Assembly (NCBI GenBank): GCA_964415895.1
Contig: CAYQCC010000007.1
Span: forward strand, 1 to 53,201
Source: an uncultured Candidatus Saccharibacteria bacterium
Lineage (GTDB): Bacteria > Patescibacteriota > Minisyncoccia > Phycocordibacterales > UBA1006
DNA: 53,201 bases
Reading direction: 5' to 3'
Each line of letters starts with the position of its first letter. Position 1 is the stretch's first letter. Under the pieces are notes generated by a model. The model worked only from the letters and a program-made list of their open reading frames with translations. It made no database searches and was not told the DNA's origin. Below, piece by piece: positions 1,802 through 41,650 of the stretch. The position numbers and the translations under genes were made by a program.

Positions 1802-1901
1802 TTAAGACACTTCCGTCAGGAACGACGGTAATTCTTTCATAAAGAAAATATGATGAGATTCCTCGAGTATTAAGGTTCGAACAGCCCTGAACTGGGCGAG
1901 C
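1802..1901 (-). repeat. att-like site B / relic recombinase tail
   Basis: Plus-strand AGGTTCGAAC..CGAGC, 26 nt from TTCGAA to GAGC; minus frame LAQFRAVRTLILEESHH...VS* open for 32 codons and ending 1 nt from the cupredoxin stop. Confidence 0.6.
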
Positions 1902-1906
1902 TAATC

Positions 1907-1937
1907 AAAAAACACCTGTTTATAGGGGTGTTTTTTT
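1907..1937. terminator. Bidirectional terminator-like hairpin after site B
   Basis: AAAAAACACC-TGTTTATAGG-GGTGTTTTTTT. Confidence 0.7.
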
Positions 1938-1960
1938 ATAAAAGGTATATAATAAACTAT

Positions 1961-3226
1961 ATGTTTGCTTACTTAATTCTTGAGATAGTTACAGGTATTA
2001 TTGGCTTATTAGCATTAATTGTATTAATGGTCCATTTGTATAAAAAACCTACCATTCATAAAATTGTAAAACAGCGAGGGATTTATATTCCGATAATATT
2101 ATTTATTGTTGCAGTTTTTGCAGGGTTAATTGCAAACCGTACCTATCCACCAAATTTTGCAATGCCTGTATTTATGCATTCACATGCACCAGGTGGTGTT
2201 CCTGCATCTATTCCTTTTAATAAAATTATAGATTTTTTTATTCATAAAAATCATTTTGAGAAAGTTGCCGATATTTCAACTGACCCAGCATCTGTACCGT
2301 CAACCCCACAGCTTCCAGATGCAGATGGAATTGTCCGCATTCATTTAACTGCAAAGGAAGTTATTTCAGAAATAGCACCAGGAATTTATTTTAATTATTG
2401 GACATATAATGGACAGGTACCTGGTCCGATGTTAAGAGTACGTGAAGGTGATACAGTCGAGTTATCATTAACGAATGATCCATCAAGTTTGCATCACCAT
2501 AATATTGATTTACATGCCGTTACTGGTCCAGGAGGCGGTGCATCAATTACTGATGTAAATCCAGGGGAGACAAAAACATTCAGATGGAAAGCCTTGAATC
2601 CAGGATTGTACGTGTATCATTGTGCAATGCCAAATGTCAGTACACATAATTCACATGGGCAATATGGTTTAATTATGGTTGATCCAAAAGATTCTACTAT
2701 TGGATTATCCAAAGTAGACCATGAGTTTTATATCATGCAGGGTGAATTATATACTGAAGGGCAATTAGGAAAACGTGGGTTGGTTCCATTTGATTCAGAT
2801 GCATTACTTGCAGGAGATCCAAACTATGTAGTGTTTAACGGTAAAATTGAAAGCGCTCCACGAATACATGCAAAGGTTGGTGATACAGTACGTATGTATG
2901 TTGGTAACGGTGGGGTAAATTTAATTTCATCGTTCCATGTAATTGGTGAAATTTTTGACAAAGTATATCCAGAAGCTGCAATAGGTGTCGGGTCATCGGT
3001 ATTTAAAAATGTACAAACAACTGCAGTATTGCCAGGAGGCGCAACAATAGTTGAATTTACAGTTGATGTACCAGGAAAATTTCTATTAGTAGATCATGCG
3101 CTCGCTCGGATGAATAAAGGGGCTTGGGCGGTTCTGGAGGTAACAGGAGATGAACAACCAAGTATTTTTTCTAAAACCAAATCCTTAATGGAGACTGTTC
3201 CTGCAGAAATGGAACATATGCAATAA
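1961..3226 (+). CDS. nirK: Copper-containing nitrite reductase (AniA-like), N-terminally membrane-anchored
   Basis: HNIDLH, YHC, SSFHVIG and VDH motifs supply the type-1/type-2 Cu ligands and catalytic Asp/His; hydrophobic N-terminus; likely start ATG 1961. Confidence 0.9.
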   Translation: MFAYLILEIVTGIIGLLALIVLMVHLYKKPTIHKIVKQRGIYIPIILFIVAVFAGLIANRTYPPNFAMPVFMHSHAPGGVPASIPFNKIIDFFIHKNHFEKVADISTDPASVPSTPQLPDADGIVRIHLTAKEVISEIAPGIYFNYWTYNGQVPGPMLRVREGDTVELSLTNDPSSLHHHNIDLHAVTGPGGGASITDVNPGETKTFRWKALNPGLYVYHCAMPNVSTHNSHGQYGLIMVDPKDSTIGLSKVDHEFYIMQGELYTEGQLGKRGLVPFDSDALLAGDPNYVVFNGKIESAPRIHAKVGDTVRMYVGNGGVNLISSFHVIGEIFDKVYPEAAIGVGSSVFKNVQTTAVLPGGATIVEFTVDVPGKFLLVDHALARMNKGAWAVLEVTGDEQPSIFSKTKSLMETVPAEMEHMQ

Positions 3227-3261
3227 AAGTATGGTGTATTCTAAAATCATTTAGTTACCAT

Positions 3262-3335
3262 AGTTACCTTACATTACCCTTACTAACCTCTGTATATCTC
3301 TCACACAGGTTCGAAGTGTAACCGATAGGCGGAGC
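3262..3335. repeat. att-like site A (putative attL), encodes the last 21 aa of the recombinase
   Basis: Ungapped direct repeat of 12642-12715; 3314-3335 vs 12694-12715 match at 21/22 nt. Confidence 0.85.
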
Positions 3336-5005
3336 ATAGTAGAAAAAACAGACGAAAACTCGTCTGTTTTTTCGTTAGACGATGTAAACAAAGGAGTTTT
3401 ATTAGGTTCGAACTTTGGATTCTCACTCTTCATTGTAATGAATCCATCCAAGAGTGCTTGAACCGATTTTGTATTGATAATACTAATCATTTCATCATTC
3501 CAGACTAGGTTCGAACGAAGTTTAGTAAGAATACTTCTTTTAGAATTAATCTGACCCTTACGCATAACGAATATAAACTCTTCAGCAAGATTAACTATCT
3601 CATTCGCACGAATAGTCCAATCAAGACTCACAGGCTTCTCTGAGGGCTTGTAGCGGGTCTCCAGGTCCAGTAAGTCAGATTTATATTCGTCATCAGTTAT
3701 CATTTTTTCGGCAAGCATCTCTCGGAGCCGTTTCTTTTTTGATTGATAGTCGGTAGCTTCTTTTTGTAGGATTTCTTCCTTGAAGAGGTTTCTATTAACC
3801 TCTTCATCTCTCATTTCCTTAATATGCTTTCTGCACCAGTCTGCAAGTTCTGAAGAAAGAGGTATTTTTTCTCCAACTTCTTTTATTAGGTAATCGGTTA
3901 GTCTTTCATCGCTTACAGATTTGTATTTGAGACCATTCTTCTTTTTCGAATTATTGTAATAATACGAATAATCAAGATACTTAGGGTTTTTCATCTCATC
4001 TATAGGTGTATTACATTGGGGGCAGTGTGTTTTATCCCTATGTGCAAATTTTTTCTTACAATCACAGATGACTTGGTATTTCTTATCAAGACCAATAAAA
4101 TCATTCTCTGGAGAAATTACAAAACCAGAAAATGTAGCCTCGTGTTTCTGAGTCTTCGGGATATTTCTTTTGCCGAGAATCATTTTGATTTCATTATGCT
4201 CATCTTCGGTAATAAGCCTAGGTAAGCTTTTGTCTAGCTCATATCTTTCACCCCCATAAAAGAAGAAGCCTGCATAGGTAGAATCTTTCAAAATTTCATA
4301 TATTCGTGAGGACTGTATTAGTTTGCCTCCAATCTTTTTTCGCTTTACAGTAGTCAATTTAAGCTCTTCTACGGCATACTTATAGAGCTTGCCAGCAGAA
4401 AATTCTTTAGTAAGAAACATCTTTAGAAGAATTTTAACTTTTTCTAACGTTGGCTCATCCACTAGCCATTTTCTATTTCCTTTCTCTTCCGTTTTATCAT
4501 TCAAGAAGCCTAGTGTTGCTACTCCGTGGGGAACACCAATAGAAGCTTTTTTAGCCTGACCTCGTTTTACATTTACTGAAAGGTCTTTAACAAATTGTTT
4601 GCCTTGACCAAACTCTACTGCTAGAACAATCACATTGTCCCAAGGGTAATAAACCTTGTCGTGGGTAATAATAGCTTTTAATACTCCTGAACTCAGGAGG
4701 TCGATAATCTTTCCACCCTCAGTCATATTTCTTGCCAGTCGGTCTGGCTTCCAACAAACTATTGTATCTACCTGACCTTTTTCAATCATCTGTATAAGGC
4801 TGGTAAACCCAGGACGAGCAAATTCTTTCTTTGCAGATTTTGATTCTTCAAATGTCTCAATAAAATCAGGAAGCTTATAAAAATCCACTATTCGCTTCGC
4901 TTCATCTTTTTGAGATTCAATAGAAAGCATCTGCCTATCTTCAGCCTCAGATGACTTTCTGTTGTAACTAGCAGGTTTTAGTTTTGTGAAATCTATATTA
5001 TTCAT
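3269..5005 (-). CDS. Large serine recombinase (resolvase + recombinase + Zn-ribbon/coiled-coil)
   Basis: YNRKSS catalytic Ser motif, DRLARN motif, CDC...CPQC Zn ribbon, coiled-coil region. Confidence 0.92.
   Translation of the reverse strand: MNNIDFTKLKPASYNRKSSEAEDRQMLSIESQKDEAKRIVDFYKLPDFIETFEESKSAKKEFARPGFTSLIQMIEKGQVDTIVCWKPDRLARNMTEGGKIIDLLSSGVLKAIITHDKVYYPWDNVIVLAVEFGQGKQFVKDLSVNVKRGQAKKASIGVPHGVATLGFLNDKTEEKGNRKWLVDEPTLEKVKILLKMFLTKEFSAGKLYKYAVEELKLTTVKRKKIGGKLIQSSRIYEILKDSTYAGFFFYGGERYELDKSLPRLITEDEHNEIKMILGKRNIPKTQKHEATFSGFVISPENDFIGLDKKYQVICDCKKKFAHRDKTHCPQCNTPIDEMKNPKYLDYSYYYNNSKKKNGLKYKSVSDERLTDYLIKEVGEKIPLSSELADWCRKHIKEMRDEEVNRNLFKEEILQKEATDYQSKKKRLREMLAEKMITDDEYKSDLLDLETRYKPSEKPVSLDWTIRANEIVNLAEEFIFVMRKGQINSKRSILTKLRSNLVWNDEMISIINTKSVQALLDGFITMKSENPKFEPNKTPLFTSSNEKTDEFSSVFSTMLRLSVTLRTCVRDIQRLVRVM
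3343..3372. terminator. Terminator-like hairpin inside the recombinase 3' coding region
   Basis: AAAAAACAGACG-AAAACT-CGTCTGTTTTTT, perfect 12-bp stem. Confidence 0.65.
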
Positions 5006-5140
5006 AACAAAAATGAGGTAACGACATTACTTTAGTTGCTACACCAAGCGTGTCATTACCTCGTTTTTATTCACAAAAACACCCATACTAATAATAATTT
5101 CACAGTGTGTTTTTATGGACATATCGCCTGGTGTAGCTCT
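5006..5140 (-). promoter_or_regulatory. Structured leader of the recombinase gene (attenuator-like)
   Basis: Long hairpin ending in CTCATTTTTGTT directly before the ATG; 9-nt complementarity between 5038-5046 and 5129-5137. Confidence 0.45.
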
Positions 5141-5499
5141 TACATTTTATCAAGATAAGGTCTTAATAACAATTAAGCTAACTTGATACAAAACAGTAAA
5201 CTTTATTTTTGGTGATAGGAAGACTCCATAGCCCCCTTACCCCCAAGCTTGGAAGTATTCGTGAAGAAACTTATTTCCGCTGTATCTCGGAGTTTCTTAG
5301 GTCCCACTCTAAGAGCTTTAATCTTAGCTCCCGATATTCCGTCATTCGCCAGGACCACCGTTCACGGCAACGAATGACTTAGAAGAAGTTTACTTCATTT
5401 TCGTATGATGAGGTTTCCTCCATCCTATGAATTAAGCTGGCATCCAAGAGAGGCTCATAGGTTCGCCCACCTTTCTCTCAGGTTTGAGTCATTGCTGAC

Positions 5500-5535
5500 T
5501 CAGAACACTACCCACTGCAATGGGTAGTGTTCTGA
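5500..5535. repeat. Perfect 15-bp inverted repeat
   Basis: TCAGAACACTACCCA-CTGCAA-TGGGTAGTGTTCTGA, immediately downstream of the 55-aa ORF. Confidence 0.85.
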
Positions 5536-5536
5536 A

Positions 5537-5704
5537 TTAATAATGCTTCTGTGGTTTTAGTTTCAAACTTTGGACCATAATTTCAAGAAAAAATTGTCCC
5601 AGATTGTTAATATCCTCGTCGCTTAACTTGCACTCAAAATCTTCACCGTGCGTTTTACGGAGAATTTCTCGAAGTTCAGTTAGTGCTAGTTTGCTGAGGA
5701 CCAT
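5537..5704 (-). CDS. Small 55-aa protein (not in the ORF track)
   Basis: Manual translation MVLSKLALTELREILRKTHGEDFECKLSDEDINNLGQFFLEIMVQSLKLKPQKHY*; co-oriented upstream of the LSR. Confidence 0.65.
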   Translation of the reverse strand: MVLSKLALTELREILRKTHGEDFECKLSDEDINNLGQFFLEIMVQSLKLKPQKHY

Positions 5705-5787
5705 ATTTAGGGGTCCTCTTGTTGCAAAAAAGCAGTCTAGAGGACTGCTTCTATCTTGCTACTTATTCAAATTTACCTCAGCCTGGT

Positions 5788-6627
5788 TTAAGGAATTTGC
5801 TTAATTAATCCAGTTTTAATTTGAGTCTTATTATCCTTGGCTTTTTTAATAATCGACTTAATATAATTTCCTGAATAGGGTTTTCCATCGGGTTTTTTTA
5901 GATTAAACCTGTGGAAAATGTAATTCGCAATTAATTCATCCTTTGCTCTCTCCAAGGCTTTTCTTTTGCCATTAATAGTAAACTTTTCCTTATATTCAGA
6001 TGAAAATCTTAAAGCAAAGGCACTTCTAATTTCTTCAGAAGAGAATGTATCTAGAACTCGAATCCACAATTCAAGCCCGCCAGTATCTGTTTTGGTTGCG
6101 CGTTTTTTTACCTTAGGAACACCTATTCCAATCTCTTTAAATTTTCTCAAAACATCATTTCCTGGAGTTCTTAAGAAATCAAAAATCTGTTGGTTGTCAG
6201 CCCCTGGGATAATTTTCAAATATAGGGCATCAGTGTCTGTTGTATCTTTAGTCCAAAATACATTTCCAAAAGGAATATTTTTATAAGTATCTTCTTGGAT
6301 ATCACCGAAAATAAATAATTCCGAAATCACAGGCTCCCACTCAGGTCGCAGTATTAAGTATTTATATTCAGGGTATTTCTTCGTTAGGGCCTTACGGAAA
6401 CCAATAAAAGCTTTAGACAAGATAGGTTTTTCATTGATAATTTCTTTAACAAAGCTATTTCTCAATACTAAGTTTGTCCAGTCGTATTTATCAATGAGAT
6501 ATTCAAAATCCTGATTATCAATACCGCCAGTTTTTCTGTACTTTACAGCTATTTTCTCGGTCTCTGCACTTGCTATAGTTTCAATGGCAAGATTCTTCCT
6601 ATTGTTGTTTGGTGTAGCATTTCTCAT
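5788..6627 (-). CDS. Hypothetical protein, possible C-terminal DNA-binding helix region
   Basis: 279-aa ORF; basic helical C-terminus; no family recognised. Confidence 0.65.
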   Translation of the reverse strand: MRNATPNNNRKNLAIETIASAETEKIAVKYRKTGGIDNQDFEYLIDKYDWTNLVLRNSFVKEIINEKPILSKAFIGFRKALTKKYPEYKYLILRPEWEPVISELFIFGDIQEDTYKNIPFGNVFWTKDTTDTDALYLKIIPGADNQQIFDFLRTPGNDVLRKFKEIGIGVPKVKKRATKTDTGGLELWIRVLDTFSSEEIRSAFALRFSSEYKEKFTINGKRKALERAKDELIANYIFHRFNLKKPDGKPYSGNYIKSIIKKAKDNKTQIKTGLIKQIP

Positions 6628-6740
6628 CTTCCAATCTTACCAATTTCAAGGAAAAATGATAGAATTAGCATTAACAATTCAATATTGCCGACCTAACCCT
6701 CATCGCTTGCGGTGAGATATGGTCAAATCCGCAAAAGTAT

Positions 6741-6840
6741 AAAGAACCCCTAGTCAGGGTCTGACTTTTGCAGTCCCATCGGGAAACTGGTGGTGTTGCT
6801 CTCTTCGGAGGGCGTACGCTTGGCTAGGGGCTTTTTGTAT
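6741..6840 (+). ncRNA. Putative C4/CI-like antisense RNA (three-way junction)
   Basis: Outer stem CCCCTAGTCA/TGGCTAGGGG, inner hairpin 6771-6789, C(UUCG)G hairpin 6798-6813; ACTTTTGC (6764-6771) is complementary to flanking GCAAAAGT copies. Confidence 0.55.
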
Positions 6841-6888
6841 GGCTAATTCTGGCAAGCGCATTATCAAAAAACCCGCAAAAGTAAAACT

Positions 6889-7110
6889 ATGGAATATTTT
6901 ATACAGGTGGCGATTGTTGCCTTTCTCGTCTGGGAATTTAATAGACGAATTAATAAGCTAGAGCGTCTGGTTTTAAGTCTGGAATTGCGACTTGGCGATA
7001 AGGTAAATAAGCCCAATGATTTTGATAAGTGGGCTGAAGAGCATAAGAAAAAACCTTTTCTATCTAAAGAAGAGTTGGAAAAAGAAAAGCACGAAGCTGG
7101 GGAAATTTAG
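6889..7110 (+). CDS. Small protein with N-terminal TM helix and charged coiled-coil
   Basis: 73 aa; hydrophobic YFIQVAIVAFLVW followed by a charged helix. Confidence 0.65.
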   Translation: MEYFIQVAIVAFLVWEFNRRINKLERLVLSLELRLGDKVNKPNDFDKWAEEHKKKPFLSKEELEKEKHEAGEI

Positions 7111-7505
7111 TCTTGCTGAGAGAGTTTTTCTACCACTCTTCGAGCAATTTCATCGTGATTTAAATCGAAACCAAAAGGAGGAAAATCGTAAAGCTGGGAA
7201 CTATCAAGTCTTGGGTCCGTAGAGAAATCCTTTTTGAATTTTCTCTCAAGAATCCACGCTGTAGCTTTCCAGTCTTTTTCACCAGCTTTCTCAATTTTCT
7301 GTATAAGCTTCTGTTTATATTCAATCACTTTTTGACCCATTTGTTCTGAAAATTCTGAATTTGTACGCTTCCATCCGCACAGGGTATCTTCTGAGATGCC
7401 AGCCAGCATTGAGGCATCTCTTTGAGTCATTCCGTTACCTAGAGCCTCTAGGATTATTGTGACCCTTTCGGGGGTCATTTTGTATGGTTTAGAAGGTTTT
7501 GCCAT
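7107..7505 (-). CDS. Phage terminase small subunit-like HTH protein
   Basis: N-terminal HTH (QRDASMLAGISEDTLCGW) followed by DWKATAWILERKF, a pattern I associate with putative phage TerS proteins. Confidence 0.55.
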   Translation of the reverse strand: MAKPSKPYKMTPERVTIILEALGNGMTQRDASMLAGISEDTLCGWKRTNSEFSEQMGQKVIEYKQKLIQKIEKAGEKDWKATAWILERKFKKDFSTDPRLDSSQLYDFPPFGFDLNHDEIARRVVEKLSQQD

Positions 7506-7584
7506 AGGAAATCATAGGTTGATTTGCTATTGCAGTAGCCTAATTATTATATCAAAAAATGGGTGAAAATGGTAAAATCCACTT

Positions 7585-10500
7585 ATGCACGGGCTACACC
7601 AAGGATACTCTTATCAAGACTTATTATCTGCTTTTTTAATATCAGAAAATCTGCATAAAAAGGATTTTAAAATAGCGATAGAGCAACAAGATTCTATACA
7701 AGACAAGTTTGATGACATTGTAGTTTTTTATGATGGCAGAAAATCTAAATTCCAAGTAAAACACACGTCAGCAAATAATTCAGTTGCAAAGAAAGATTTT
7801 ATAAATAAATCTAGCGACCTTAATTTAGCTGAATTAGCCAAGTCTTTTCTTGATGATAAAAAAACGACTTATATAATTGCCACAAATAGGAATGTTGAAT
7901 CTGACAGTTTCTTTAGCAATCAGGGTGACTCAGGAATATTTTCACTTAAAAATGAATCTTTTCAAATTAGTGGAACTGCTTCTCATAAAAGTTTTACAAA
8001 GAAACTTTTTATTGAATCGTCACTACCTGGAGCTTCCTTTGACCTGAGTAAGCCTGGGAGTCTTGAAAAAGAATTATTGGAATCTTTGCGTACCCAAGTA
8101 GGCATCGGTCAGTATCCAAATAATCAAGTTTCAGAGAGGGATGTTGCTGGTCGTTTAATACTACTAGCTTCTCAATTAAGAAGTACTGGCAAGGGAAAGT
8201 TTTTTGACAGAGATTATATTTTCAAGTATATAAATCTTAATTTTGAATACGGTCATATTGTACAAAATTTCCCATTCATTTCTACAGAGTATAGGCTATA
8301 TAGGACAGAGGTCGTAACAAAAATCCAAGGTCTTTTGTCGGTACATAAATATGCAATTCTTCAAGGTGCGCCTGGTGGTGGAAAATCTCACGTATTTGAT
8401 GACTTGTTTCAAAAGTATAAAGATGAAAAGGTTACAGTTGTCCGTCATTTTTGCTATTTGGAGCCAACAGACCGCCTGGCTCAAGAAAGAATTGTTGTAG
8501 ATGCGATGTATGGTAACTTTCTACATCAACTTGAAAGAAGTGAGCCTAAAATAGCTGAGGAGTTAAAACCCTATTTTTCAGCGACTAAATCAAATCTAGA
8601 AAAGATGCTAATTAAGTTAGCCGAAGCAGGAAAAAAGACTGTTTTGATGGTGGATGGATTAGACCATTTGAATCGAGTAGTTGCTCAGAATAGACTCTCT
8701 GAAGATTTGGTCCAAAGTTTTATTTCTGACCTGTTGGATTTAAAGCTTCCTGAAAATTGTTCCATCTTTATCGCCTCTCAGCCAAGTCTTGAATTGAATC
8801 AAATAATAGAGCATAGAGATGTTGGGGTATACACACTTCTTCCTTGGAGTGAAAAAATGGTTGAGGAATTTTTGAAAAAACATAATGACCATTTGCCGTC
8901 CGAAAGAAAACTTCTCGTAGATAAGGAAATAATAAAGCTTTTATTGCAAAAAACCGAAGGTAATCCTTTGTATCTAACATATGTTCTAAAAGAGGTAATT
9001 AGTTCAAGTAGTGAATCAGATATTCCATCTTTCCTTGAAAAACTACCCCAGCTCAGCAGTGATTTAAATAACTATTATAGATATTTAACAAAAACATCAA
9101 GTGTCTCAGATTTTGCTGTGATGCAAACCTTGGCGTTGCTCGATTTTAGTGTGTCGTCAGAAGAGATAAAAGAAATGTTTCCTCCAATCCAAAAGCCAGT
9201 TATTGAGGCAACAATTAAAAAAATAAAACCAATATTGAAATCAGGGATAGTACACGGAGGTATAAGAATTTATCACGAAAGTTTTCGCCGTTTTATAATT
9301 GAGGAAAGCCATAAGAACAAACAGCAAGATAGTGAGCTATATAAACACATAACAGATTGGCTTGATAAGAAAGGTTTTTATGTCTCCCAAAGAACATACA
9401 GGTATTTAATTCCTTATCTCATTAGGTCGGGCGAAGAAGATAAGGTTTATTCTCTTTTACCAAAAGATTTCATATCGCAAAGTTTGTACTTCTTTCATTC
9501 CCCCGAGAGTATTACTAGCAACCTAAATAGAATTGCGGACTTTGCAGGACTGAAACAAAGATGGGATGTGTACTGTAAGGCTGTTGAATTAAAAAGGGCT
9601 TTACATACTTATACATACGAAAGGGCGGAATCAACAGATGATGTTTATTATCAAGCGATTTTAGACGTGCAGGGCGCGGATATGTTTTGCGAGAGATTAA
9701 TGTTTGATGGAAAGCCAGTTTTTTCTAAACTAGGAGGCATATTAATGTGTCAAAAGGCAGAACATAGTGGAGGAAACCCGCCGTGGGATTTTTATGATGT
9801 TCAAGGAATTTCGATGTCTGTTGGTAGTCCTGCGCAGATTTACCATTTTCAGGAAGTTGAATCAGCTAATTTTCTAAGTTCAATTCGAAAGGCATCAGTT
9901 AAATATGCTATTAGGGTAATGTGGAGATTAATGATGCGAAACAGATTCTTGAATACGGAACAACGTCAAATCAATTGGCTTCTGAACGAATTTGATTTTG
10001 TATTTGGTGTTTCAGCCAACTATAAGGAATTAATTACTCTTCCTATGGCTCGAAAAAAGAAGGCGTGTTTACACTTAGCAGTAGCAAAATACTTGTATAA
10101 GGATGGAAAAAAGAAAGAAGCCAGTCAAATAAGTACAGGTGTATTAAAGACAACAAAAGATAGTAACCAGATTCTTGAAAGCCTAAAACTGGATGGTAAA
10201 ATTGCCAGCCCTGTTTTAATTGGTGATATATCAAAATTAACAGCCTCGATTTTCGGTTTTCAGCATCTATATGACGACAAAGAAGTTCCTGTATTTAAGG
10301 AATGGTATGAGGCTTTACAAATTTTGTCCCACATTAAGCGAGATGAAGTAAAAAATGCAAGAAAATTGATAAATAGAATTGATGGATGGTATCGTGCGTG
10401 GCTCTTGTTTCTTGTCGATTTATCTCTGTTAGAAGCCGAGAATAGTTCGGTTGTAAGGAAAGAAAAAGCTTTCGAGATTATGCTATCTGAACTTGTTAAA

Positions 10501-12234
10501 TATGCAGCCCCTTTCACTGGTACTCCAAGGGCAATGGACCTTTATTCAATTCGGGAATTTTGCACGGATTCTTTTCGTAGAGTATTGATACTTGGAAAGG
10601 ACTTTTCTAATTATGAATTCATATTAAATTCTCTAGGGACAATAAGCTCCGAAACTACTTCTTATCTACAAGGCTCAAGCGATGGTCCGCTAGATGGTGA
10701 AAAATTTAATACACTACTCAAAGAAATTTATTTGTTGTTAGATGAGTCTAAAAGAAAAGTGGTATTGAAAAGATTAAAAGAGAATGTATATAACGGTTTT
10801 GCATCTTCACATTATTATGACTCTTCTTCATTTGAACATTTAAAGTTATCAAGCGTACTTTCTCAAGCGGGAAAAACTAAGGACTCGAAAACAGAGCTCT
10901 TGATGGGCTGTGTCCATCTAGTTGCATACGGACATAGGAAAGATTCTACTCTGTTTGAAATAATCGAACCCATAGGTTTTATTGCTAAGAAAGATTTAGG
11001 CTTTGCAGCTAAAGCTCTATTGAAAACCTATCCCTTGGCTGAGACAGTCTGGAGATATACAGATGGTAGTACTACAAAATGGAGTCTTACTTACTGGATA
11101 GAATCTTTAATTGCCTCAAATGTTAATATGGCTGTTCAGGTAATGACGGAGCTAATAATTAAAGACCCTGGTAGAGATTGGCGGGTAGAGTTAGGCACTG
11201 AGCATCTTTGTAAAAAGTTGGTTGAAGAGAAAGTGTCTATTGCAATAGTGGCAGACCTCTACGAGACCATATTTAGATTAAAGGATACAAGGATTAATGT
11301 TTCAGTGGGATTAGAAATTGCGCAACTCTTAATAGTTTCGGGGAAATATGAACGAGCGCAAAAGATTTTTGACCATATAGCCTATAACCTTTACCACGTT
11401 TCAGTTTTTGAATATGTATCTGAGAAGGAAAATTTCGAAAAGATTCTTTCTTTTGCAAAAAAATACAAATTAAAACTCAAGGACTATCATAAGAAGAATT
11501 TTGAAGCGAATAGGGATAAAACTGCAATGAAAAGTCCGCTTGCCGATATTCCAAAGACTAAAGAGGTGATTGAAAAGTTTAAGTTTAAAGGTCTCGATGC
11601 AGAGGAGATGCAAAGGTTGCTGGATGAAAATCCTAGAGGGCAATTTCTTTATTCTCAAAATGTGCAGAATCTTGGAGAGGCATTGTCTCTAATTGCTAAA
11701 GATAAGCCAGAAAAGAGTCAGAATATTGTACTTTCGTTGGTAAGAACAGGTTTCTATAAGGACCAAGATATTAAAGGATTAATTGCTCTCAGAGAAATCT
11801 TTATCAAAAATGGACAGAAAGAATTGGCTTCATTTGTTTCAATGCTAGGTTTAGTATACGCGCGTGGTAGTGGTGGATGGCACAGCTTGGCTGACAGTCA
11901 ATATAACTATCTAGGTTCTGATGCTTTTAAGTTATCAAAAAAGACAGCGGAAAAGACTCTCTCAAGTGAAATGTCTTATATTTTTTCCAAGGATGGATAT
12001 TTTAGTGGGCCAGTACGACATCTAGTAGAATTTTTCTCACAGGCATCCCAGGTTAGATTGGCTGAAAATATATGGAATGAGGCTTATGATGTTATAAAGT
12101 TTCGATTGCCAACTCCAATAGAACTGGATGAAATGCTTGAAAAAGAAACTCCTAGTCTCACATATAATCTCAGGAAACCAATAAATACCGCCCTTAAAGA
12201 GCTTATAAAAGAGCGACTCAAGATTACTGGTTAG
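7585..12234 (+). CDS. PD-(D/E)xK nuclease-STAND NTPase, Avs/AVAST-like antiphage protein
   Basis: N-terminal GYSYQD..DKFDDIVV..FQVK nuclease motif; Walker A GAPGGGKS, Walker B VLMVDGLDH, STAND GNPLYL; long helical C-terminal region. Confidence 0.8.
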   Translation: MHGLHQGYSYQDLLSAFLISENLHKKDFKIAIEQQDSIQDKFDDIVVFYDGRKSKFQVKHTSANNSVAKKDFINKSSDLNLAELAKSFLDDKKTTYIIATNRNVESDSFFSNQGDSGIFSLKNESFQISGTASHKSFTKKLFIESSLPGASFDLSKPGSLEKELLESLRTQVGIGQYPNNQVSERDVAGRLILLASQLRSTGKGKFFDRDYIFKYINLNFEYGHIVQNFPFISTEYRLYRTEVVTKIQGLLSVHKYAILQGAPGGGKSHVFDDLFQKYKDEKVTVVRHFCYLEPTDRLAQERIVVDAMYGNFLHQLERSEPKIAEELKPYFSATKSNLEKMLIKLAEAGKKTVLMVDGLDHLNRVVAQNRLSEDLVQSFISDLLDLKLPENCSIFIASQPSLELNQIIEHRDVGVYTLLPWSEKMVEEFLKKHNDHLPSERKLLVDKEIIKLLLQKTEGNPLYLTYVLKEVISSSSESDIPSFLEKLPQLSSDLNNYYRYLTKTSSVSDFAVMQTLALLDFSVSSEEIKEMFPPIQKPVIEATIKKIKPILKSGIVHGGIRIYHESFRRFIIEESHKNKQQDSELYKHITDWLDKKGFYVSQRTYRYLIPYLIRSGEEDKVYSLLPKDFISQSLYFFHSPESITSNLNRIADFAGLKQRWDVYCKAVELKRALHTYTYERAESTDDVYYQAILDVQGADMFCERLMFDGKPVFSKLGGILMCQKAEHSGGNPPWDFYDVQGISMSVGSPAQIYHFQEVESANFLSSIRKASVKYAIRVMWRLMMRNRFLNTEQRQINWLLNEFDFVFGVSANYKELITLPMARKKKACLHLAVAKYLYKDGKKKEASQISTGVLKTTKDSNQILESLKLDGKIASPVLIGDISKLTASIFGFQHLYDDKEVPVFKEWYEALQILSHIKRDEVKNARKLINRIDGWYRAWLLFLVDLSLLEAENSSVVRKEKAFEIMLSELVKYAAPFTGTPRAMDLYSIREFCTDSFRRVLILGKDFSNYEFILNSLGTISSETTSYLQGSSDGPLDGEKFNTLLKEIYLLLDESKRKVVLKRLKENVYNGFASSHYYDSSSFEHLKLSSVLSQAGKTKDSKTELLMGCVHLVAYGHRKDSTLFEIIEPIGFIAKKDLGFAAKALLKTYPLAETVWRYTDGSTTKWSLTYWIESLIASNVNMAVQVMTELIIKDPGRDWRVELGTEHLCKKLVEEKVSIAIVADLYETIFRLKDTRINVSVGLEIAQLLIVSGKYERAQKIFDHIAYNLYHVSVFEYVSEKENFEKILSFAKKYKLKLKDYHKKNFEANRDKTAMKSPLADIPKTKEVIEKFKFKGLDAEEMQRLLDENPRGQFLYSQNVQNLGEALSLIAKDKPEKSQNIVLSLVRTGFYKDQDIKGLIALREIFIKNGQKELASFVSMLGLVYARGSGGWHSLADSQYNYLGSDAFKLSKKTAEKTLSSEMSYIFSKDGYFSGPVRHLVEFFSQASQVRLAENIWNEAYDVIKFRLPTPIELDEMLEKETPSLTYNLRKPINTALKELIKERLKITG

Positions 12235-12307
12235 GACTATCTATCGCTAGAGGAGCTTGTTGCTCGTCGATTATTGCTTTTCGAACATCATCCCAGGTGC
12301 GGAGCCA
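12224..12307 (-). repeat. att-like site D / relic recombinase tail
   Basis: TTCGAAC..GGAGC with 26-nt span; minus frame WLRTWDDVRKAIIDEQQAPLAIDSPNQ*. Confidence 0.7.
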
Positions 12308-12311
12308 AGCT

Positions 12312-12342
12312 AAAAGACACCTAATTCACATAGGTGTTTTTT
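12312..12342. terminator. Terminator-like hairpin after site D
   Basis: AAAAGACACCTA-ATTCACA-TAGGTGTTTTTT. Confidence 0.7.
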
Positions 12343-12378
12343 GTTACCGTTGGTAGGCAATCGAACATGTGGTAAAAT

Positions 12379-12624
12379 GTGGATATGAATATGAAATTCA
12401 AATCTCTAATTACTGGTCTTTTAATTTTATCGCCTATGTCCGTCTTTGCGCAAAATCCTGGATTCGGCGCAGAACCAACTCCATTTTTTGAGATGCTATT
12501 TATCAAATCATATTGTACAACACCTTTTGAATGTATACTTAATAATTATATTTTAAATCCATTAATAATATTACCTGTGTTTATAGTCATTGGGGTAGTT
12601 ATTTATAAAAAAATGAAAAAATAA
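12379..12624 (+). CDS. Small membrane protein (signal peptide plus C-terminal TM helix)
   Basis: 81 aa; signal-like N-terminus ending VFA, C-terminal TM with KKMKK tail; upstream TGGTAAAAT extended -10. Confidence 0.65.
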   Translation: MDMNMKFKSLITGLLILSPMSVFAQNPGFGAEPTPFFEMLFIKSYCTTPFECILNNYILNPLIILPVFIVIGVVIYKKMKK

Positions 12625-12641
12625 ATTGAGTTTAATTATTC

Positions 12642-12715
12642 AGTTACCTTATATTACGCTCATCAATCTCTGTATTTCCAATGTATAGATTCTAAGTGTA
12701 ACCGATATGCGGAGC
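12642..12715. repeat. att-like site A' (putative attR), alternative recombinase tail
   Basis: Minus frame LRISVTLRIYTLEIQRLMSVI*, same length as and homologous to the LSR's real tail LRLSVTLRTCVRDIQRLVRVM*. Confidence 0.85.
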
Positions 12716-12794: not shown

Positions 12795-13652
12795 ATGTCT
12801 GAATATCAACCAAAAAATAAGTCCTTTGAGCAATATATACAATTAGGCTACGAGTTTGCTTCTGGGAAAAAATTGTCTGAAAATGAGATGGTTCTTTTAG
12901 AAAAAATATCCGATATAGATACTAGTATTATCAAAATTGATGATATTCTTGACCACGAAGAATACCGAAATAATCGCAAAGCAATTCACCTTATTGATGG
13001 GATAGAAAAGACGATCATAAATGCCAAGCTCGATGAAATTAATGGTGTTCAAGCACTTACTGATTTAATTGAGTTTAGAAAATGCTTTCCTCTTTTCAGT
13101 TACGAAATACTTAAAGTATTTAATAATGACTATATGCGAGGAATATATGAAGGGCAAAAAATTGATAAGGAGTTGGAAGAAATAGAAAATATAACACCAG
13201 AAATGATCCATAAGTATTTTTTAATGACCAAAAAGTTCACGGGAGGTCATATAAGATATGGATTAGAAATCGGGCAACTATTAGGCGGTAAAATCCCTGA
13301 TAAAAGCGTTAGTGAGATTGCCGAAAATTTAGGCATTAATCGACAGATTGTAGATGATTTCGAAGATTATTTTAAAGCCCATCATTATCCATTCGGAGAT
13401 ATTAAAAGGGGTGCAAAAAGACTTCCTGAGATATTATTTACCTTGAAAGGTGGTAGTAGAGAAACTGTTCTAGAGCTTATTACGAAGAAAGATTTTTCAG
13501 GAATAGTAAAACTTGTTTTAAATGAGGAGGTTAGAAAATCGCTCTATGATTATTGTAAAACGAATATAGAGCAATGCGAGCAAATTACAACTGATTTTGA
13601 TTGGGCAAAGATTTCAGTTGATATTGAACAAATACTAAGAAAAGAAATTTAA
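12795..13652 (+). CDS. Polyprenyl synthetase-family protein (divergent)
   Basis: First Asp-rich motif DDILD..R, GQKID, second motif QIVDDFED. Confidence 0.75.
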   Translation: MSEYQPKNKSFEQYIQLGYEFASGKKLSENEMVLLEKISDIDTSIIKIDDILDHEEYRNNRKAIHLIDGIEKTIINAKLDEINGVQALTDLIEFRKCFPLFSYEILKVFNNDYMRGIYEGQKIDKELEEIENITPEMIHKYFLMTKKFTGGHIRYGLEIGQLLGGKIPDKSVSEIAENLGINRQIVDDFEDYFKAHHYPFGDIKRGAKRLPEILFTLKGGSRETVLELITKKDFSGIVKLVLNEEVRKSLYDYCKTNIEQCEQITTDFDWAKISVDIEQILRKEI

Positions 13653-13731
13653 ATTTAAAATTTCACCTAATTCGAGCTCGCTTTTAATCTGAACCCAGTT
13701 AAGGATTCTGAACTTGTCCACGAGAGGGAGT
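13635..13731 (-). repeat. att-like site C / relic recombinase tail
   Basis: TTCTGAAC..GGAGT with 26-nt span; minus frame LPLVDKFRILNWVQIKSELE... open for 31 codons; 16-bp hairpin follows at 13750-13786. Confidence 0.65.
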
Positions 13732-14202: not shown

Positions 14203-14247
14203 TCATTTACTCAAAATTTTCGATCGAACATTTCCCATGTTTGGAGC
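14203..14247 (-). repeat. att-like site E (degenerate, 1-nt deletion)
   Basis: ATCGAAC..GGAGC with 25-nt span; restoring 1 nt gives LQTWE(N)VRSKILSK*, resembling site D; imperfect hairpin follows at 14254-14282. Confidence 0.55.
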
Positions 14248-14345
14248 TAAATTTAAAACACCTATTACACAGAGATGTTTTAGTTATTCTTTATTTCTTA
14301 AAAATATTAAGATATAAATGGTATTTATTATTTTAACTTTTAACT

Positions 14346-41230: not shown

Positions 41231-41650
41231 ATGTTTGAAAAACTATTTATGTTGCCGAAACTGGCGAAATATGCGAAAGGAGGTAAAAAATGGATCGATC
41301 TGTTAGGTTTTGATGTGCGTGATATTAAAACCTGTGCCGACAGGATTTCCTGCACTATTTCATTTCCTGAAAAACTTACGGGCAATGATGGAATTATTCA
41401 TGGGGGAATTTTGTGTTTTGTGATGGATTCAATGGCGGGTATTTTTGCGAGCATTATAGAAACAGACTCATCAAAGAAAATATTAACGAAAACAATGTCC
41501 GTATCTTTTGTAAAACCTGTTGTTCCAAAAGCTACTTATACGGTCATTATTACAAAAATATTTGTGAATGAAATACTGGCAAGAATTATAGATGAACACG
41601 AGGAAGAAGTTACAGTAGGCAGGTTAGAGATGATCGCAAAAGAGAATTAA
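41231..41650 (+). CDS. PaaI-family (hotdog-fold) thioesterase
   Basis: GIIHGGILCFVMDSMAG; SVSFVKP. Confidence 0.85.
   Translation: MFEKLFMLPKLAKYAKGGKKWIDLLGFDVRDIKTCADRISCTISFPEKLTGNDGIIHGGILCFVMDSMAGIFASIIETDSSKKILTKTMSVSFVKPVVPKATYTVIITKIFVNEILARIIDEHEEEVTVGRLEMIAKEN

Follow-up and report, generated by a model that had tools for sequence, protein, structure and literature searches.

An uncultured Paceibacterota bacterium with a probable serine-recombinase integrative element at a cassette-island junction

A 53,201-nucleotide stretch of contig CAYQCC010000007.1 (assembly GCA_964415895.1; positions 1-53,201), referred to in its entirety as the window, carries a cassette island whose host is an uncultured Paceibacterota bacterium. 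Positions 3336-12305 (8,970 bp) of this stretch were found very likely to constitute one serine-recombinase integrative element, lying at a junction of the island and having a junction termed site D as its right end. The element contains a large serine recombinase gene, an open reading frame (ORF) of 55 amino acids (aa), a LOOT RNA, a helix-turn-helix (HTH) gene resembling small terminase subunits and an Avs-like STAND defence gene, and its attachment site extends into the 3' end of the recombinase gene. A nirK cassette flanks it on the left and a cassette for a 77-aa membrane protein on the right, both of them resident, and its size is the distance between the cores of sites A and D (12305 - 3335 = 8,970). 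Site D is the right junction, at which the element's own P arm is joined to a resident right arm. Site A is the left junction, at which a foreign arm of a kind repeated along the island (A-type) is joined to the element's second arm, P', the recombinase then bearing the substitute tail LRLSVTLRTC... A first-pass annotation of the same DNA had placed the ends of the element at A and at a further A-type site, A', with D as an alternative site between them. Its inventory was sound, as site D, the reading frame, the hairpin, the promoter, an 81-aa ORF, the A/A' repeat and the distance of 8,970 bp were all recovered where it had put them; its placing of D within the element belongs to interpretation.

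The limits of the element were drawn from related contigs, designated here by L numbers. The nirK cassette of L011 matched window positions 1909-3335 at 92% (blastn) and ended exactly at the crossover of A, being followed there by a different cassette. Similarity to the 77-aa cassette started at window positions 12308-12317 in four independent contexts (L003, L001 and two copies in L013; blastn), immediately to the right of the D core. Because the similarity of these two cassettes breaks at 3335/3336 and at 12305/12308, respectively, the inserted segment was determined to be 3336-12305; five related contigs in all have breakpoints there. Public read evidence consisted of Logan contigs and unitigs only; in these, the element and the D junction were confirmed on single unitigs in three runs.

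Sequence comparison also indicates that the left half of site D (D-left) is a genuine attachment arm of the recombinase. The layout TTCGAA-N13-GCGGAGC is present in D at 12280-12305 and with equal spacing in A at 3310-3335, and A' shows it with one mismatch at 12690-12715. Read on the minus strand, D encodes AWLRTWDDVRKAIIDEQQAPLAIDSPNQ*, in frame with the Leu-Arg codons of the recombinase, and seven homologue tails matched D in the window by tblastn (best E = 5.8e-4). D-left, the far arm P, thus codes for a native tail, LRTWDDVRK..., which is restored when D-left is joined to the right half of A (A-right) and which is carried by 9 homologues among the 120 listed. The same join reproduces the intact attP of four relatives (L010, L017, L018 and L019), where two arms are joined just inside the end of the recombinase gene. 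Contig L008 encodes a recombinase that is 83% identical, with its last codons running antisense through tRNA-Asn, and its ~10.8-kb element is bounded by tRNA-Asn at one end and by a D-like arm at the other. This far-end arm, ATGCTCCGCACCTGGGACAATGTTCGGAAAGCAATAATCGAGG, reading MLRTWDNVRKAIIEE, agrees with D-left at 23/26 and 38/45 nucleotides, the identity fading beyond ~50 nt. The first-pass annotation was therefore right to regard D as a recombination site, but not to regard it as an internal alternative, since the same arm closes the L008 element and D-left with A-right makes up the attP of the four relatives.

Between TTCGAA and GGAGC, the P arms (D, B and A-type) have 15 nt and tRNA-Asn has 10 nt. 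In known serine integrases the half-sites of attP and attB are offset by 5 bp, and the difference in arm spacing recalls this offset by analogy. A symmetric CGAAAA motif on both attP arms was considered and dropped, as it is not kept in the other four attP sites. Runs X1-X3 also hold a 15,542-nt contig (10,706 nt in X3) with a 33-nt D-like arm that aligns to window positions 12272-12304 with 3 mismatches; the contig is of similar depth but the arm has different flanks, and it may represent a further P-arm remnant at another place in this genome or in the community. In L008, a 22-nt copy of the tRNA-Asn 3' end was noted at ~690-712, ~290 nt beyond the right junction of the element, and was probably left by an earlier event at this tRNA.

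The recombinase itself was assigned by several profiles. Its N-terminal resolvase-type catalytic domain (PF00239, residues 13-105) has the conserved serine, the motif YNRKSSEAEDRQ is present, and its matches in the PDB were the catalytic domains of TnpX and of a conjugative-transposon recombinase. The PF07508 domain, which many close homologues carry, scored 19.5 bits, under the cut-off of 21.1, while the PHROG integrase profile covers residues 5-509 and a CxC...CxxC pattern is visible in the sequence. The homologues (n=599) belong mainly to Parcubacteria/Paceibacterota. Nearly all of the 120 listed, from which the tail classes were derived, keep the motif ...EKT..F..VFST(M/L)L, and their sequences part ways at the Leu codon that lies on the GGAGC core. 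Beyond this codon, tails are very short (LRG*, LGR* and similar), of the form LPRQDSNLRPIA, of the class of D (L[RQ]TWD[DN]VR..., the 9 proteins mentioned above), of the form LPL[LV]D.FRT.NW...LQN, or of the form L.GL.SVRTALIEERL. Tails of the first two classes both result from reading on through tRNA-Asn, and the 3' end of this tRNA gene was accordingly taken to be the usual target of the family; short-tailed members in L020 and L021 likewise lie at tRNA-Asn. Exact-sequence searches returned no record for the 81-aa ORF, the recombinase or nirK, and scans of IMG/VR with attP, the A-type arm and relatives of the recombinase gave no matches.

The A-type arms are of a different nature from the ends of a single element. 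Sites A (3262-3335) and A' (12642-12715) share a 74-nt direct repeat of 77% identity with the core GTGTAACCGATA[G/T]GCGGAGC, and the minus strand of A supplies the present recombinase tail, LRLSVTLRTCVRDIQRLVRVM*. The full A-type repeat, of ~95 nt (TTAGTTACCATAGTTACC...CAGGTTCGAAGTGTAACCGATAGGCGGAGC), was found at 26 places in 22 distinct versions across the window and twelve related contigs (13 loci), the contigs being Paceibacterota-type metagenome-assembled genomes and metagenomes. Each copy is co-oriented with the cassette genes, placed after a small gene and the closing part of a cassette in arrays linked to tRNA-Asn, and L001 holds six of them, with a seventh junction arm that is not A-type, in 7 kb. 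The arms end in ...GGAGC and are followed by a spacer of 5-7 nt and one of a few right-hand modules. The commonest of these comprises a hairpin (AAAAAACACCT...AGGTGTTTTTT), GTTACC..GGTAATCGAAC, an extended -10 box and ATGAATATG; an alternative module is of the TTGACA type. Contrary to the first-pass annotation, A and A' are therefore array-wide cassette-end repeats and not the two ends (attL and attR) of one element.

The A-type arms bear a coding signature in the frame of the recombinase tail. Single-base codon differences between copies were 383 synonymous and 364 non-synonymous in this frame, as against 42/575 and 64/628 in the other frames, and the third-position excess gave permutation p values of 0.013 to 0.0005 for compared pairs that are not phylogenetically independent. 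Neither ARAGORN nor Rfam found a tRNA or known RNA in the A-type arm, and a scan of the junction arms for dyad symmetry yielded no conserved symmetry.

The 77-aa unit is an independent resident cassette. Its gene occurs without the recombinase in L001, L002, L003, L013 and L014, with the same hairpin-promoter module and A-type arm; the first-pass view of hairpin, promoter, gene and A' as a separable unit was accordingly upheld. It forms the final unit of the L001 array; in L003 its immediate predecessor, in housekeeping surroundings, is a cd1-type nitrite reductase gene. That it would also turn up after nirK where the recombinase is missing, as had been anticipated, was confirmed in L013 and L014, where it lies just downstream of nirK with one extra ORF and a recombinase-tail arm between them. 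The same 5' module also precedes unrelated ORFs, and the promoter of the 77-aa gene reads TTGGTA-17-TAAAAT with an upstream TG. The possible starts are GTG 12379 (81 aa), ATG 12385 (79 aa) and ATG 12391 (77 aa), of which homologues use 12385 or 12391. The nirK cassette is similar from 1909 onwards in L011, L013 and L014, and the start of the gene is likelier to be ATG 1961 (421 aa, as in these three contigs) than GTG 1928.

The 77-aa gene was repeatedly seen after a nitrite reductase gene, either nirK or cd1-type (window 12391-12624; L003 10001-10234; L013 3261-3500 and 6741-6974; L014 8370-8609), and this recurrent neighbourhood hints at a functional link. At L013 6931/6932 the gene (window 12575) is joined straight to the interior of an 839-aa gene (window 15410), the result of either a 2.8-kb deletion or a chimeric assembly. 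Unitigs of X1 break where this join lies (12546-12575).

Table 1. Positions of the sites, arms, genes and RNA discussed here, numbered from the first letter of the window.
Feature	Positions	Strand	Remarks
Site B	1876-1937	+	Left arm TTCGAA-N13-GGCGAGC 1876-1901, spacer TAATC, hairpin 1907-1937 opening the nirK cassette
nirK-type copper nitrite reductase gene	1961-3226	+	Pfam Cu-oxidase_3, Cu-oxidase_2; cassette body 1909-3335
Site A, left arm	3251-3335	+	A-type repeat closing the nirK cassette; crossover core GCGGAGC 3329-3335
Large serine recombinase gene, 578 aa	3269-5005	-	Pfam Resolvase 2.3e-15, Recombinase 0.0012; PHROG integrase 2.4e-39; 599 homologues
P' arm beside the recombinase gene	3336-3375	-	Hairpin 3343-3375; encodes the recombinase stretch EKTDEFSSVFSTM; intact attP sites align with it on their P' side
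55-aa ORF	5537-5704	-	Directly upstream of the recombinase gene
279-aa ORF	5788-6627	-	No Pfam, PHROG or PADLOC match; no match in the L008 element
LOOT RNA (RF03000)	6690-6813	+	Rfam 51.1 bits, gathering score 46.4; between the 279-aa ORF and the small-terminase-like gene
132-aa HTH protein, small-terminase-subunit-like	7107-7505	-	PHROG 4102, 7.7e-20; 62% identity to an ORF of the L008 element; backbone
1,549-aa NACHT/STAND NTPase, Avs-like	7585-12234	+	Pfam NACHT; PADLOC Avs1b 4.4e-20; cargo
Site D, left arm (P arm, right end of the element)	12224-12305	-	Native recombinase tail LRTWDDVRKAIIDEQQAPLAIDSPNQ*; conserved core ~12261-12305
77-aa cassette, 5' module	12306-12390	+	Spacer CAAGCT, hairpin 12312-12342, GTTACCGTTGGTAGGCAATCGAAC, -35 TTGGTA, extended -10 TGGTAAAAT (12370-12378)
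77-aa signal-peptide and transmembrane protein gene	12391-12624	+	Homologues P0001, P0002 88-90% identical
Site A'	12636-12715	+	A-type arm closing the 77-aa cassette; same arm after the gene in L001, L002, L003, L013, L014
Site E	13650-13731	-	P-arm remnant after a polyprenyl-synthase-like gene; reads LPLVDKFRILNWVQIKSELELGEILNL; tblastn with tails P0041, P0026, P0007, E = 2e-7 to 5e-5
Site C	14219-14282	+	Decayed D-class arm; GGAGC 14243-14247, reads LQTWEMFDRKF*; hairpin 14254-14282 of repeat family D2

Other junctions of the array were compared with the recombinase tails. When the long tails were used as tblastn queries against ~150 kb (the window and the related loci), they matched almost nothing other than junction sites, from the crossover Leu onwards: sites D and E (13730-13650) of the window, the far-end (right-hand) arm of L008, and junctions of L003, L011 and L014. 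The sole match away from junctions, at 41256, sits in an open stretch of 30 codons and was attributed to chance. By eye, the minus strand of site B (LAQFRAVRTLILEES) bears a weak likeness to the tail class L.GL.SVRTALIEERL, and the arm of site C a similarly weak likeness to D and the tail classes. Most left arms at the junctions encode a recombinase tail, which makes this recombinase family the probable builder of the array.

The cassette content varies among L011, L012, L013, L014 and the window, and the changes always fall at GGAGC. Contig L014 shares the gene order of the window (HMA-CcdA, cupredoxin, nirK, 77-aa gene), and its island sits between tRNA-Asn and the cd1-type gene, which adjoin each other in L001 and L003. 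The island of the window would thus lie downstream of tRNA-Asn, and it appears to have grown by site-specific recombination among the junction arms.

Several observations weigh against an element bounded at 3335/3336 and 12305. Logan contigs of five runs, a kind of data that drops rare forms, showed neither an excised circle nor an empty-site joint. The 31-nt core that links the A-left of nirK to the recombinase is repeated in the community (depth 110, against ~50), so that Logan unitigs cannot confirm nirK as the left neighbour; that linkage is backed by the 53-kb assembly and by agreement in depth (45 vs 40). The left arm of A has the P-type spacing of 15 nt rather than the 10 nt of tRNA-Asn, and an insertion there therefore misfits the textbook rule of attP by attB. 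Furthermore, tRNA-Asn falls outside the window, and no other recombinase protein in the database was found to bear an A-type tail.

Other explanations for the arrangement were weighed against this one. According to the first-pass proposal, an element of 9,380 bp spans A to A', the 77-aa gene is its cargo and D is an internal alternative site whose use leaves the gene behind as a new cassette; the direct repeat of A and A', and the fact that both are in frame as a recombinase tail, would be expected of such an element. However, A-type arms close many unrelated cassettes in the 13 loci, the 77-aa cassette, its 5' module and 3' arm included, is present where the recombinase is absent, D-left is both the far-end arm of the L008 element and half of the intact attP in four relatives, and the comparative breakpoints contradict the proposal, as does the confinement of the A-type tail to this one recombinase; an A-to-A' element was consequently judged quite improbable. 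It was also considered that the array was shuffled by homologous recombination within two conserved intergenic modules, the A-type arm (~95 nt) and the hairpin-promoter unit (~90 nt), the element being incidental and D merely its end. These modules are long and 80-95% identical between cassettes, and exchanges within them would look site-specific. Nevertheless, many unlike arms are joined exactly at GGAGC (tRNA-Asn with the hairpin module, the A-type arm with the 5' region of the cd1-type gene, D- or E-class arms with either module, and the A-type arm with the recombinase arm), D-left and A-left have only 7 + 6 nt in common, and those non-A-type left arms that can be classed match known recombinase tails, all of which makes shuffling by homology unlikely.

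If D were a mere 3' untranslated region and terminator of the STAND gene, its likeness to A would be accidental, and the TTCGAA-N13-GCGGAGC pattern does occur at chance level when up to three mismatches are allowed (9 found vs 7.8 expected). The exact pattern, however, was found only at A and D within the 53 kb, D-left is closely matched by an arm lying beside unrelated cargo in L008, and seven independent recombinase tails align to D from the same Leu codon, so that a chance resemblance is scarcely credible. An integrative element running from 3336 to 12305 was accordingly retained as the preferred reading.

Under an 8,970-bp element ending at D, other proposals of the first-pass annotation change their meaning. 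It had treated A with D as an alternative excision, whereas these are the element's own pair, and exchanges of A with A' or with C would be the non-standard ones, capturing neighbours. The 77-aa gene, which it saw as left behind by this element, need not have been deposited by it, because D is the element's own end and A and A' are array repeats. The hybrid junctions it predicted were not seen in public contigs, which drop rare forms. A contig joint of 3331 to 1898 was evaluated as a nirK circle and rejected: in X1 and X3 its right side agrees with site B over no more than 24 nt. It is instead another A-type arm with a generic hairpin module behind it or, in X4 and L004, an A-type arm placed ahead of a nirK cassette. 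A recombinase-free subpopulation suggested by depth differences in X1 was likewise discarded, as it was absent in X2 and X3.

The element combines a backbone with cargo. The backbone common to the window and L008 elements consists of the recombinase, the 55-aa ORF and the small-terminase-like HTH protein. The 55-aa ORF is conserved, always beside the recombinase gene (68% identity in L008, 55% in L010 and 38% in L019), and is a candidate directionality factor or regulator. The cargo beside the P arm in L008, type III restriction-modification and Abi_C, is unrelated to the STAND gene, and in the intact-attP element of L019 (3120-6342) a Gabija-like pair (AAA_15/OLD-TOPRIM and a UvrD-type helicase) occupies the same place. 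Defence genes were thus observed to recur as cargo of related elements (window, L008 and L019).

With regard to how the layout arose, the right arms that follow an unoccupied tRNA-Asn would act as host-side arms; most joints of the array, including D, would then be of the attR kind, while site A, in which a P-type arm is joined to P', would formally be of the attP kind. The present layout could have been reached if a cassette-bearing circle had entered the attL of an element that was resident at tRNA-Asn beforehand, or if the attP of the element had exchanged with an internal joint. With A', E and C as alternative partner arms, neighbouring cassettes could be taken up and subsequently shed, and such capture and deposit through alternative partner sites is plausible as a general model. 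A broader suggestion, put forward tentatively and as possible rather than probable, is that Paceibacterota run a serine-recombinase counterpart of the integron, and that the window catches a live recombinase element within its array. In such a system tRNA-Asn with a right arm would behave as attB, a P arm with a right arm as attR, tRNA-Asn with P' as attL, and a P arm with P' as attP, the class of site A. The enzyme alone would recombine attP with attB, and attL with attR in the presence of a helper protein. These reactions would shuttle blocks of recombinase-less cassettes, nirK included, as circles, a more distant P arm (A', E or C) capturing neighbours and a nearer one depositing them, and the exchange of recombinase tails from one state to the other could favour one reaction over another.

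The locus is of use in supplying both ends of an intact element and a reconstructable attP at an internal array junction with recombinase-arm joints. The question of who builds such arrays becomes testable, with one recombinase in two tail forms, a 55-aa candidate helper and five kinds of site. The genes carried by the array are both respiratory and defensive (nirK, the cd1-type reductase, cupredoxin, thioredoxin/DsbD-type genes and the Avs-like STAND gene), and the array may explain the exchange of such functions among the ultra-small bacteria of the candidate phyla radiation. No description of this system was found in the literature searched.

Among known systems, the closest functional analogue is the composite island of the staphylococcal cassette chromosome (SCC), the likeness being one of function only. 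SCC/SCCmec composite islands are moved by the Ccr large serine recombinases and have the 3' end of rlmH as their target. As in SCC, a large serine recombinase is present, units are stacked at one chromosomal site with co-oriented repeated sites between them, recombinase-less units lie beside a recombinase-bearing one, and pairs of sites could in principle excise single units or composites. Unlike SCC, the target here is the 3' end of tRNA-Asn and not rlmH, there is no sequence relation to ccr beyond the level of the family, most units consist of one gene that has a hairpin and promoter of its own, and the sites separating them are P-type arms that encode the C-terminal tail of the recombinase. 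The array resembles integrons in being a row of co-oriented, unrelated, mostly one-gene cassettes with a conserved 3' recombination site and with content that varies between close relatives. It differs in that its arms are those of a serine recombinase and not folded attC hairpins, in that the cassettes have their own promoters, and in that the docking site is a tRNA gene. The single-strand-folding palindromes with R and L boxes that mark attC were not found, the minus strands encoding recombinase tails, and a Pfam scan of ten of the larger ORFs within 1-15 kb detected no tyrosine recombinase, only the serine type.

The phage-type large serine integrases, such as those of Listeria A118/LI, Bxb1 and phiC31, follow the logic of attP, attB, attL and attR. 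The enzyme described here resembles them in its resolvase domain, in a putative recombinase domain, Cys-rich zinc ribbon and coiled-coil region, and in using short arms joined at a small common core; canonical members of its family have attL and attR at tRNA-Asn. It differs in that, at the junction occupied by the element, the left arm has the spacing of an element arm, with no textbook attB, and in that integration swaps the last 1-35 residues of the recombinase, because attP overlaps its ORF. A parallel to this last property is found in the integration-dependent immunity of mycobacteriophages, which Broussard et al. in 2013 are said to have described and in which attP lies inside the repressor gene and the integrase is of the tyrosine type. 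In both cases the attachment site is located in the 3' end of a coding sequence and integration alters the C-terminus of the protein; in the mycobacteriophages, however, the altered gene is that of a repressor, whereas in the element described here it is the serine recombinase itself.

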